Below are positions 12,230 to 59,300 of a stretch of 64,000 nucleotides of DNA, in pieces. Under the pieces are notes generated by a model, which was not told the origin of the DNA, did no database searches, and saw only the letters and a list, made by a program, of their open reading frames with translations. How positions within the stretch are numbered: position 1 is the stretch's first letter; every line of letters begins with the position of its first letter. Source of the DNA: Octopus vulgaris (lineage: Eukaryota); the NCBI GenBank assembly GCA_951406725.2, contig OX597814.1, positions 95,976,001 to 96,040,000 on the forward strand, written 5' to 3'. The position numbers and the translations under genes were made by a program.

Positions 12230-13075
12230 AAAACAAAGAAGGAAAATGCATACACTTTACATAGTTTTAATATAATTTTTAATATATCGACCGGTTCCGC
12301 TTTCGCTATTCATGACATTAAAATTTAATTATTTAGATACGTATTTTCTTAAGGAGAAAGTTTTTGGTCCATGTTGTGTGAGATATTTTTGAGTGAATGA
12401 TACAAACAGTAGAAAAACTAAGGAGAGGTAATTGGTTATCGTTATTATTGTGGACAGGGGAGATAACTGTTCAGCTTACGGGAGGGGCGTGGAAATATAT
12501 ATATATACACAAAAATTTGAAAACTAGTTTAGTGATGTACTCGAGTATATGTAAAAAGATCAAAGTTGGTTATGCGTGTATATTTAGACGCGTTCTGTAT
12601 TTTTCGATGAAAAAAGCTTATTTAGACGTTCTTATAGAGAAATTGTATCTTTACTCTGGTAGAAGGGGAAGATTGTGAAGTTTGATTTAGTGTTACCTGC
12701 ACATTTCTCTATGTGTTCACTTAGAAGAATTTGTCTGTATTGCGGGAACCGGATCTGCTCTTTATGTAGAATGGTTCTCTATTTCAAAGTCATACTTGTC
12801 TGTCCAATATAGTGTTGTCTACACCCCGAGCAGGTTATTTCATAAATTAGGTTCTCAGAGGCACAAGTGAAACTGGTTTTAATTGTGAACCTCTCTCCTT
12901 GTTTGAAAAGGAAATCCGAGCCTTCAAGTAGGTTGGAGCATGTTCCACAGTTTGGGCGTCCGCATTTTTTAACCATTGGTTTCGTGGTTGTTTTGTAAAG
13001 ATTCGCATTTGTTACAAGTCTCTTTAGTGATTTATGTTGCTTTTTGCATTTGATTAGTTTATGCGTTTTCAGGAT
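12230..13075 (-). mobile_element. Penelope-like element 3' fragment (GIY-YIG endonuclease, CxxC motifs), bounded by (TA)n
   Basis: KCGRPNCGTC...NLIYEITCSGC..HYIGQT; hammerhead-like motif at 12284-12318. Confidence 0.85.
12284..12318 (-). ncRNA. Minimal hammerhead-like motif, A3:U8 core variant, A13G
   Basis: AUGUC AUGAAUA GC GAAA GC GGAA CCG GUC GAUAU. Confidence 0.55.
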
Positions 13076-13149
13076 ATATATATATATATATATATATATA
13101 TATATATATATATATATATATATATATATATATAGGTATATGTATATAA

Positions 13150-56300: not shown

Positions 56301-59300
56301 TGCTGGAGAGGACCGATCAGGTAAAGGACCTGGGTATCTTGGTGGATTCCTCCTTTTCGCCTTCGGCCCAGTGCGTCCATGCTGCCAACAAAGCACGCGG
56401 AATTCTGTTCTTGATTCGACGGTCATTCGGAATGCTCACAGCAGCCATATTCCTACCACTCTATGTCACGCTGGTGAGACCCATATTGGAGTATGGGATT
56501 CAAGCCTCTTCTCCTTATCTCCTCAAAGACATACAGCATCTCGAAAGAGTCCAGAAGATGGCTACCCGCATAGTTCATGGTCTCAAAAATTTGTCCTACG
56601 AAGAAAGGCTGAGGACGCTCGACCTTTATTCTCTTGAAAAACGCCGCCGCCGTGGTGATCTCATTCTCGCCCACAACATCATAAGCGGAAAGTGTAACCT
56701 CTCGAAAGAGCTGTTCTTCACTCCTGCTCCAGAGCGTCGGCTGCGGGGTCATTCCAAAAAGCTCTACCTGCGACGATTTCATCTCAATCGAAGGAGAGGA
56801 GCTTTCTCCGTCCGGGTTGCGGATCCGTGGAACAAGCTGCCAGACGAGATGGTGAAGATGCCGACGACCGCTTTGTTCAAAGCCTCCCTGGACCTCAAGT
56901 GGCCTGAACTCTTTACATGAACACCACCCTGTACTTAACTCCATGTCCCCCTACATGGCCTTGCTATTTGCTTTTGAGCCTAATTAACTAACTAACTAAC
57001 TAACATATATACATGTATTATTAATCTTATAGTTAGGATGGGAGATAGTACTCCTTTTAGATGAACTTCAATGCTGATGGGAGGGAGGTATCATAGAATT
57101 GGAGACCTTGATCGAATGATTACAACAGTGTTGACTCTGCTAAAGGTACCCAAGATGCCAGATGGTGAAGTTAAACTGAGTGAGTTATTAAATCTACAAC
57201 CAAAGAAAAATACAAAAAAAACCCAAATTAATAGATTGCTTGAAATAGACATCACTAGAGATTTCTCATTCAGCTCATGAAATATTTGAAAGAAAATCAG
57301 TTCTGTTGTGTGTTATTAACTCGGTTTCTGCATTAAAAAAAATGAGATAGGGAACTTCAGTTGTGAGTGATTGAAGTCAATGAGAATATAAGTCTAATCA
57401 AACATTCACATTCAATGGTTTTACTTTCATTTTGAAGAGACGGAAAAAGACAGCGCATCCAAACATCCACTTGTAAAAGCGAAATCACTATCATTGGATG
57501 ATGATGGAGAAACAGAAGATGAAGCATCCTTAGAAGAGGTTTGACATATTTTAAACTATGTATATTTATGGCAATGGTTTTCAGTCATTTCAATACATGA
57601 CTCTTATCCACTCTTCAAGAAGTGAAAACACACACACACACACACACACACACACACACACACACACATGTTTGTTTGTGTGTGTATGTTTCTTCACAAA
57701 CATAAACATGAATCAGTTTATGTTTGTGAAAATAGGTTAGATTATGAGTATCAAAGATATTGTTATGTTTCGGGGACGGTCAACATAGTAGCTAAAGTAC
57801 CCCACAAGGCAGTACCATAGAGAGCATCCATCAAATAGCTAACTCCATCCGAGTATTAAAATAATGGTAGATTATCCTAGCAAGCATCCTAACTGTAGGC
57901 TACTGGTCTTAGACACTGAACTTTGGCTGGAAACTAACAATAATAAGTTCCAGATCCTTTATTTCCTCTATGCCAAACCCATGGCCTCTAAATACCTGGT
58001 CCACAAAAATACAGCTATTACAGACAGCGGCAAGTTCAATATTGAAATGGCGGATTTGGTGAGAGTGTTCCAAAAGAATTAGAAAGACACACACAACACG
58101 TCATTCACTACATGCAGTTCTCTAGCTATAGCCAAATGGACAAGACTAGAGTGTGCAAAGGAGCCAGAGCTAAGTACAAGGCTGTCATAGAGAATGATGC
58201 AAATAAGGTCTGCCTGCTATAACAATAACACTCCCACCACCCCACTTCGCAACATGACGACTAAAGACAGAGTGGTAGAAAAAAAGACAGATACAAACAG
58301 TATAATACATAAACCAATATTCAAACACGCACACACACAAAATAGTCATACACATATCTAAGATGAAATGGGAAGAAAAAAGCGAGATGAAATAAGAAAA
58401 ATAGAAAGATAAATAACTAAATAAATGAAAAATGAAGAAAAAACTAAATAAAAGACATGGATATAAACAGTATAGTAAGCAAGCCCCGCCTCACAAAACC
58501 TGCACAAAACACATAGGCATGCATACACACACGCACACATATACAGATATAGACTCAAATGCATGCACAGATAAGAATACATACAATAGAAAGGCAAAAT
58601 GGACTAAACAGGACAGGAAGAGACACGTGGGCTGGAGAGTTGCTGAAGAGGTCACAGGATGTGTGACAAAAGATTTCCAGACATAGATCATAAAATAAGA
58701 ACAGTAATAGCATAAACTTGAAGTGACGAATGAATATATAATGCATGTGTTTATTTGGCAAAAAAAAAAAATGAAAAAAAGAAAAATGACCATCTCCTGA
58801 AATATAACAATATCTGTTTCAACCTGTCTTCACATCAGGTATCTTGTAAAACAAATACATAAACATAAGAATATTAAAGGATTATATATATATATATATA
58901 TATATATATATATATATATAAGTTTAATTTGTCAAAATATTTTCGTCGCTATAAGACCGCGACCTGTTCACTGACAAAAATCCGTGCTGCATCTGAGAAA
59001 GTAACAGTTAGTTTGTCATATATATGTACATATGTATTTGTGTATGTATGTATACATGCATATATGCATGCATGTATGTATGTATGTACGTACATACGCC
59101 TGTGTGTATGTATGTATGCATGTATGTGTGTGTATATGCACGCACATACACACTATAAACTTAAAGCTATAAACCTGTAATATATATATATATATATAAT
59201 AATAATGATAATAATAATAATAATAATAATAATAATAAATGCCCTGATGCAGTACCAGGCAATGGCTCTCATGGCTTCTGATCTTAACTGATTGGAAGTG

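Follow-up and report, generated by a model that had tools for sequence, protein, structure and literature searches.

What does it mean when a single gene appears to be strewn with hammerhead ribozymes? The question is raised by a 64,000-nucleotide stretch of Octopus vulgaris DNA (contig OX597814.1 of assembly GCA_951406725.2, positions 95,976,001 to 96,040,000 of the forward strand; hereafter the window), in which an initial annotation listed 13 hammerhead-like motifs in and just upstream of one transporter gene and took compensatory changes in their cores as signs of function. All 13 were located, the listed coordinates lying near the lower end of each motif; they are named here by the coordinate of position 3 of the core (by the lower end for 35378 and 40962) and collected in Table 1. 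The cluster is an ordinary deposit of the ends of Penelope-like elements (PLEs), with fewer sound motifs than first listed. We think it quite probable that most of the motifs are decayed hammerheads derived from a number of unrelated families of repeats, with PLE remnants lying next to six of the motifs, and that one is a member of a high-copy family in which the G3:C8 pair is fixed and which acted in its source element as a weakly self-cleaving ribozyme, assisted by dimer formation or by protein.

A high-copy family with a G3:C8 core

The motif at 58971 has G3 at that position, C8 at 58966, an extra G at 9b and U17 at 58935. Stem I is 7 bp long, stem II 5 bp, and stem III is a 6-nt palindrome; stems I and II are both present in the predicted minimum-energy fold, for which z is -2.94, one of 200 shuffled sequences folding equally well.

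A 100-nt stretch around this motif was compared, at 80% identity, with the contigs of four of 24 sequencing runs, three of which (X2, X5 and X6) are DNA or probable-DNA runs with three different organism labels. Matching contigs numbered 2,531 in X2, 3,255 in X5, 4,727 in X6 and 444 in X9, the last of which is only guessed to be an RNA run, and its contigs are not taken as a sign of expression. Peak summed depth per run was 15,600 to 55,700 times that of one long contig, a figure that is not a copy number; as a rough inference, the family is of the order of 10^4 copies. The test covers the G3:C8 motif only, and a sister family of less than 80% identity, such as a diverged C3:G8 one, would escape it.

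Letter changes of 3% or more occur among these contigs at ten of the 100 places: 58951, 58953 and 58955 in loop 2, 58958-58961 at CpG sites (3-6%), and 58980, 58982 and 58983 in the 5′ flank. No variant reaches 3% at G3, C8, the other core bases, stem I or stem III. Since this invariance at G3 and C8 extends over thousands of contigs, the swap is a family trait and not the decay of one copy. When 58951, where the window copy holds the minority letter, and the CpG sites are left out, the variable sites kept (58953, 58955, 58980 and 58982) all fall in loop 2 or the 5′ flank, which make up 28 of 70 positions (p about 0.02). This distribution is modest, after-the-fact evidence of selection on the source elements. 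Overall, the family is real and high in copy number and is likely to be a new natural form of a known kind of ribozyme, and we lean towards the view that octopods carry a natural G3:C8 hammerhead family of some 10^4 copies, kept active by selection in a source retroelement, together with several families that have C in place of U at position 4 (U4C). The argument from compensatory swaps to function retains its force for G3:C8, which is fixed across a large family, and loses it for A3:U8, which is seen in one damaged copy.

The family also shows a break in coverage. At 58993 contig depth drops by about half, successive bins having 0.51-0.57 and then 0.63-0.69 of the depth of the bin before, and many contigs cease to match at 58992-58994, beyond which their flanks are unlike (agreement 0.41-0.45) and only a minority reach 59013. 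The break falls at a predicted 3′ splice site just upstream of the motif and could reflect either spliced templates or a preferred truncation point, which we regard as a lead. Coding constraint on the core was rejected, as the reading frame opened by the ATG that follows the predicted acceptor ends at a stop after only 22 codons. As a separate observation, four single contigs from X2 and X6 contain head-to-tail joints about 50 nt apart (58933-58986), three of which end at 58933, a point two bases beyond the predicted site of cleavage.

How might such a motif have worked? The source elements would have been transcribed with two terminal repeats, and a short palindromic stem III that cannot close alone would have led two copies to pair through it, probably with the help of the element's protein. 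The G3:C8 swap would preserve the 3:8 Watson-Crick pair and thereby permit cleavage after U17. Reverse transcription from the 3′ tail would then have left many 5′-truncated, sometimes inverted copies in (TA)n, which are now decaying, and single intronic copies would leave the host pre-mRNA uncut.

Several points count against this account. Self-duplex formation by stem III of the G3:C8 motif is predicted at only -0.2 kcal/mol, because of which the motif probably needs help to cleave; U17 is a less common cleavage-site base, and comparisons within the window linked no PLE open reading frame (ORF) to the family. Neutral amplification of one master copy gives a fixed swap as well. The loop-versus-core test rests on four sites only, chosen after the data were seen, and the CpGs at 58944 and 58947 are without variants of 3% or more whereas 58958-61 vary at 3-5%, so variants at some positions may have escaped the tool. 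Insertion of a lizard (Anolis) PLE in vitro did not require hammerhead cleavage (PMC11167929), and U4C is reported to lower activity considerably in vitro (PMC3088659).

The family might instead be a non-autonomous retrozyme- or SINE-like (short interspersed nuclear element-like) unit of roughly 100-150 nt that PLE proteins mobilise, and not the pseudo-long terminal repeat (pLTR) of a coding PLE. The window copy, about 95 nt between microsatellites and without an ORF, would suit such a unit, as would the shared copy ends at 58992-58994 with unlike flanks and the head-to-tail joints, and retrozymes have been proposed as PLE derivatives (bioRxiv 2026.07.22.740005). The joints are, however, single contigs among thousands, PLE copies usually persist as short 3′-end remnants, and the Drosophila virilis pLTR, whose intron ends at helix I, has a splice-acceptor-like signal beside that helix (PMC4209133). 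We hold this possibility to be doubtful, though it fares best among the alternatives.

Somewhat less probable is that the motif is a catalytically dead or irrelevant passenger, in which one master with the swap, or a fold kept for protein binding, was amplified without any need of cleavage. The Anolis result and the very weak stem III duplex would agree with this, as would the Naiad PLEs, which thrive without canonical hammerheads (PMC8557442). Against it, two transversions that exactly restore the tertiary pair in an otherwise intact core would be unlikely without selection, variation among copies shuns the core and stems I and III, and full-fold G3:C8 motifs are present in phage contigs too. 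In viral contigs, five of 88 matches to the G3:C8 pattern passed the fold filter, as against 126 of 135 for a control C3:G8 pattern (103 of these with C17), and two type I phage hammerheads with G3:C8 cores are convincing by eye (L127, with C17, and L140, with A17). A rule excluding C17, a base that could mispair with G3, from G3:C8 cores was discarded, for although the octopus family has U17, two of the five fold-passing phage motifs have C17. Candidate family members in metagenomes, sought by an 18-base pattern, were likewise set aside as chance matches: there were at least 120 loci, and none of those listed continues into a hammerhead fold.

The remaining motifs

By blastn and inspection the 13 sort into nine sequence families, which bears out the suggestion that several unrelated families are present. 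A strict descriptor (type I, with position 4 either U or C and the 3:8 pair of any Watson-Crick kind) gave four hits in the window, three of which score at least 15 (37297 and 58971 on the reverse strand, 39337 on the forward strand), a score that no hit attained in 60 local dinucleotide shuffles. With a graded scorer that tolerates a single core mismatch, devised when the motifs had already been seen, the analysis found five motifs at 13 or more against none in 40 such shuffles, nine at 9 or more against a mean of 1.62 and a maximum of 5, and 22 at 6 or more against a mean of 12.6 and a maximum of 21. Covariance models from Rfam returned 99 matches at E<=10 in the window, none of them a hammerhead.

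Five motifs are clean, with core and stems intact: 58971 and, all with U4C, 39337, 37297, 52128 and 31558. Four are decayed or weak and belong to families of two to three copies (52159, with A9G; 30980, with a broken stem III; 44577, with weak stems; and 58643, with G12A). The last four, 40253, 12313, 35378 and 40962, are single, damaged and by themselves at chance level, and 35378 and 40962 are not among the 30 best graded-score motifs. The list is thus far from one of 13 equally credible ribozymes, eight being damaged or weak. If U4C and any 3:8 pair are allowed, the core (a 3:8 Watson-Crick pair, GAAA and UH) is free of mismatches in 58971, 39337, 37297, 52128, 31558, 30980 and 44577, and mismatched in the other six. 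Short palindromic stems III occur in 58971, 39337, 52128, 31558, 12313 and 40253, with self-duplex energies of -0.2 to -8.7 kcal/mol.

Chance matching in AT-rich repetitive DNA is in keeping with the four single motifs, which fall within the range of the shuffles, and with the 22 hits at scores of 6 and above, against a shuffle maximum of 21. For the top five it is refuted by the lack of such scores in the shuffles, by the putative PLE-terminal position of the sites and by the conservation of one high-copy family, and as an explanation of the motifs in general it is very improbable.

U4C is found in five motifs of three unrelated families and is natural in a viroid (PMC3088659). It was probably inherited from the source elements, because CpG decay would remove it and not create it. 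The three versions of the 3:8 pair described at the outset come down to two, C:G and G:C; the third, A:U, is unconfirmed as a natural pair, being read from one damaged copy. That copy, 12313, has A13G, a stem II of 2 bp and a fold no better than its shuffles (z +0.40), and sits where a pLTR hammerhead is expected.

Element ends in an ABCB1-like gene

The transporter gene is real and is of the ABCB1/MDR1 type. One exon of 54 amino acids matches the O. vulgaris multidrug resistance 1-like protein at 100%, and when that protein (P0001) was mapped onto the window it gave 13 exon matches on the forward strand, the gene running beyond the window. One motif lies upstream of the gene and the other twelve in its introns, in agreement with the placement first given. 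Two further exon-like matches, at 19912-21075 on the forward strand, are to the O. sinensis ABCB1 protein and are missing from P0001, a gene model that may lack exons.

A clear view of how the motifs were deposited is provided by one 5′-truncated element. Its ORF has 30 relatives at E<=0.001 and by eye looks like Hydra-1_Obim. In the element as a whole (37181-39453), reverse transcriptase (RT) is followed by a C-terminal GIY-YIG domain without CCHH, the length is below 3 kb and the target is (TA)n, as in the Hydra clade. The clade is marked by RWK and DKT motifs and a CxCX5C linker. Relatives, such as P0121, carry RWR and DKT; the window copy is truncated at its N-terminus. The element has no cysteines in its linker, and the linker of the remnant at 34345 is one residue off. 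Hammerheads flank the ORF, one in the direct 3′ pLTR (37297) and one in the inverted 5′ pLTR (39337), and the two pLTR arms (37181-37310 and 39324-39453) are 97% complementary.

Four more motifs lie beside PLE coding remnants: 35378 and 40962 are inverted on the 5′ side of theirs, and 12313 and 58643 are on the same strand on the 3′ side. Stem III of 40962 resembles that given for Hydra-1_oBim. A run of at least six TA units occurs within 300 nt of 11 of the 13 motifs, compared with 16% of random positions. Both the proposed proximity of most motifs to (TA)n or PLE coding remnants and their assignment to minimal hammerheads of the PLE type are upheld by these results. Comparisons of proteins from the window tied no coding remnant to 58971, the 52128 family, 31558 or 40253. 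For the RT-thumb fragment at 57843, a word-based search and Atlas gave no match and a full search found relatives; Pfam returned no family in nine of 12 window frames, PLE RT among them.

PLE-like DNA, divided among 190 families, accounts for 6.83% of the O. vulgaris assembly (PMC13282606), which corresponds to about 4.4 kb per 64 kb. Because of this share the density of motifs is ordinary. Their link with the transporter gene is incidental, and their clustering in one gene is of little import, mirroring as it does the PLE load of octopus DNA. It is scarcely credible that the gene has recruited the motifs to control its ABCB1-like transcript through intronic self-cleavage, for although seven of the 13 have the same orientation as the gene, six of these are damaged, the seventh can pair with an antisense twin, and the density fits a genome so rich in PLE DNA. 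That seventh, 39337, is the sole motif on the gene's sense strand among the five clean ones, and its predicted pairing with the twin amounts to -203.9 kcal/mol.

Table 1. Motifs, element remnants and the host gene, with positions in the window
Feature	Positions	Strand	Basis or remark
G3:C8 minimal type I hammerhead; member of high-copy family	58928..58978	-	Score 17.5, best in window
Predicted 3′ splice site (branch-like CUAAC, pyrimidine tract, CAG)	58993..59007	-	Sequence; splice role predicted
U4C hammerhead, 3′ pLTR of Hydra-type element; C3=37297, about 190 nt after stop codon	37218..37307	-	Descriptor, graded score
U4C hammerhead, inverted 5′ pLTR copy; C3=39337	39327..39418	+	Descriptor, graded score, blastn
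U4C hammerhead, intact arm of inverted duplication; C3=52128	52066..52140	-	Graded score, blastn
Inverted twin of 52128 with A9G; C3=52159	52147..52221	+	Graded score, blastn, fold
Diverged member of 52128 family, U at position 4, broken stem III; C3=30980	30968..31043	+	Graded score, blastn
U4C hammerhead, long stem II, stem III an 8-nt palindrome, partial decay of stem I; C3=31558	31444..31567	-	Graded score, fold
Canonical-core minimal hammerhead, weak stems, same family as 58643; C3=44577	44538..44581	-	Graded score, blastn
44577-family hammerhead with G12A; C3=58643, about 420 nt downstream of RT-thumb remnant, same strand	58639..58682	+	Graded score
Damaged motif read as A3:U8 with A13G; position 3=12313	12279..12322	-	Score 6.7; alone not above chance
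Hydra-style motif, decayed (G12A, stem I missing); inverted, at 5′ end of 34345-35304 remnant	35378..35410	+	Inspection
Minimal hammerhead shape with A6U; C3=40253	40248..40285	+	Score 8.6; shuffle mean 3.7 hits at >=8
Decayed Hydra-style motif, best read as missing C3-U4	40962..41017	+	Inspection, fold
Hydra-type PLE, truncated at 5′ end, with RT core, a single stop and degenerate GIY-YIG endonuclease	37487..39286	-	ORF, protein comparison
Second Hydra-type PLE remnant (thumb, linker, GIY-YIG)	34345..35304	-	Protein comparison
Short Hydra-type PLE coding remnant	40439..40700	-	E 3e-4
GIY-YIG remnant of canonical PLE type (linker CX4CxxC), on same strand as 12313 and about 270 nt upstream	12580..13060	-	Protein comparison
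PLE RT-thumb remnant	57798..58219	+	162 relatives at E<=0.001, some with RT core and GIY-YIG
ABCB1/MDR1-like host gene, continuing past window	14278..63492	+	13 exon matches

The 52128 and 52159 motifs form the arms (52066/52147) of what is predicted to be one long hairpin (-152.6 kcal/mol). They lie in a near-perfect inverted duplication of 190 nt (52046-52236), which would make a long double-stranded RNA hairpin in the pre-mRNA and is a possible substrate for A-to-I editing. A 12-nt string on the 3′ side of the 31558 motif recurs near 45970 and at 35352-35363, and 45913-46234 on the reverse strand matches the N-terminal part of a PLE relative, P0150 (E 6e-16).

The window also holds repeats of other kinds. 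A near-intact long interspersed nuclear element lies at 53927-56920 on the forward strand, with an APE endonuclease (PF03372, PF14529), an RT (PF00078) and one stop at about 55654. A SINE-like family of about 185 nt has at least 12 copies in the window (repeat families D12, D14 and D18), with tandem runs of three to four units at 6489-7263 and 14781-15365, and an element resembling a miniature inverted-repeat transposable element (43084-43791) has 164-nt terminal inverted repeats, 95% complementary and 380 nt apart.

Comparison with known hammerheads and elements

Standard hammerhead searches fix C3 and G8, and a high-copy animal G3:C8 family shows that counts made in this way miss whole families. 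The octopus family is natural support for the 3:8 tertiary pair with a purine at position 3 and a ready substrate for asking whether the spread of a PLE depends on cleavage by its hammerheads. If some 10^4 active G3:C8 copies and the U4C families are confirmed, a large animal ribozyme population would have been missed by C3/G8 and U3/A8 descriptors and by Rfam, and it would offer a natural test of how much the identity of the 3:8 pair matters in dimeric, protein-assisted hammerheads.

In the passages of published work consulted, G3-C8 appears only as an engineered change and U3-A8 as the natural 3:8 variant, and literature searches brought up no natural G3-C8 family, a partial coverage that does not establish absence from print. 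We found no account of octopus hammerheads beyond Hydra-1_oBim, and the main text of the octopus repeat paper (PMC13282606) contains neither 'hammerhead' nor 'ribozyme'.

The closest general likeness is to the minimal type I hammerheads of metazoan PLEs described by Cervera and de la Peña in 2014 (PMC4209133), with which the octopus motifs share an extra base after A9, G10.1-C11.1, a palindromic stem III, a multitude of families and, for 37297 and 39337, location in pLTRs. Single minimal hammerheads of this kind number in the thousands per animal genome, cleave weakly and as dimers, and include a Schistosoma family with U3-A8 that has about 1,300 hits (PMC4209133). In contrast to the octopus motifs, the rows seen of that paper's Fig. 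S3 have CUGANGA and UUGANAA cores only, without G3:C8 or U4C, and its Table S1 includes no cephalopod.

With the Hydra clade of PLEs, including Hydra-1_Obim of Octopus bimaculoides (Craig et al. 2021, PMC8557442), the 37181-39453 element shares an RT and a GIY-YIG domain without CCHH, a length below 3 kb, (TA)n insertion, an inverted 5′ copy and a hammerhead near the 3′ end. It departs from them in its U4C core and long stem II, the Hydra-clade rows of File S2 in that paper all having canonical CUGANGA, and represents a different family.

Non-LTR retrozymes (PMC7229834; bioRxiv 2026.07.22.740005) are likewise short animal repeats that are akin to PLE termini and contain hammerheads of type I. 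They are defined by tandem arrays and circular RNAs, whereas blastn found no same-strand tandem copy in the window; with head-to-tail joints confined to single contigs, the earlier description of a retrozyme-like set did not hold up as regards tandem arrangement.

Natural covariation at 3:8 (U3-A8) and U4C are both known from the core variants of Perreault et al. 2011 (PMC3088659), whose examples are from phages, bacteria or viroids; the passages of that paper name no natural G3-C8. The swapped pair itself has a laboratory counterpart in engineered C3G/G8C hammerheads, among them that of the Anolis PAc PLE, which needs the element's protein and whose double mutant partly restores cleavage (PMC11167929). 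Those are laboratory mutants, whereas the octopus swap is natural and is fixed in a large genomic family.

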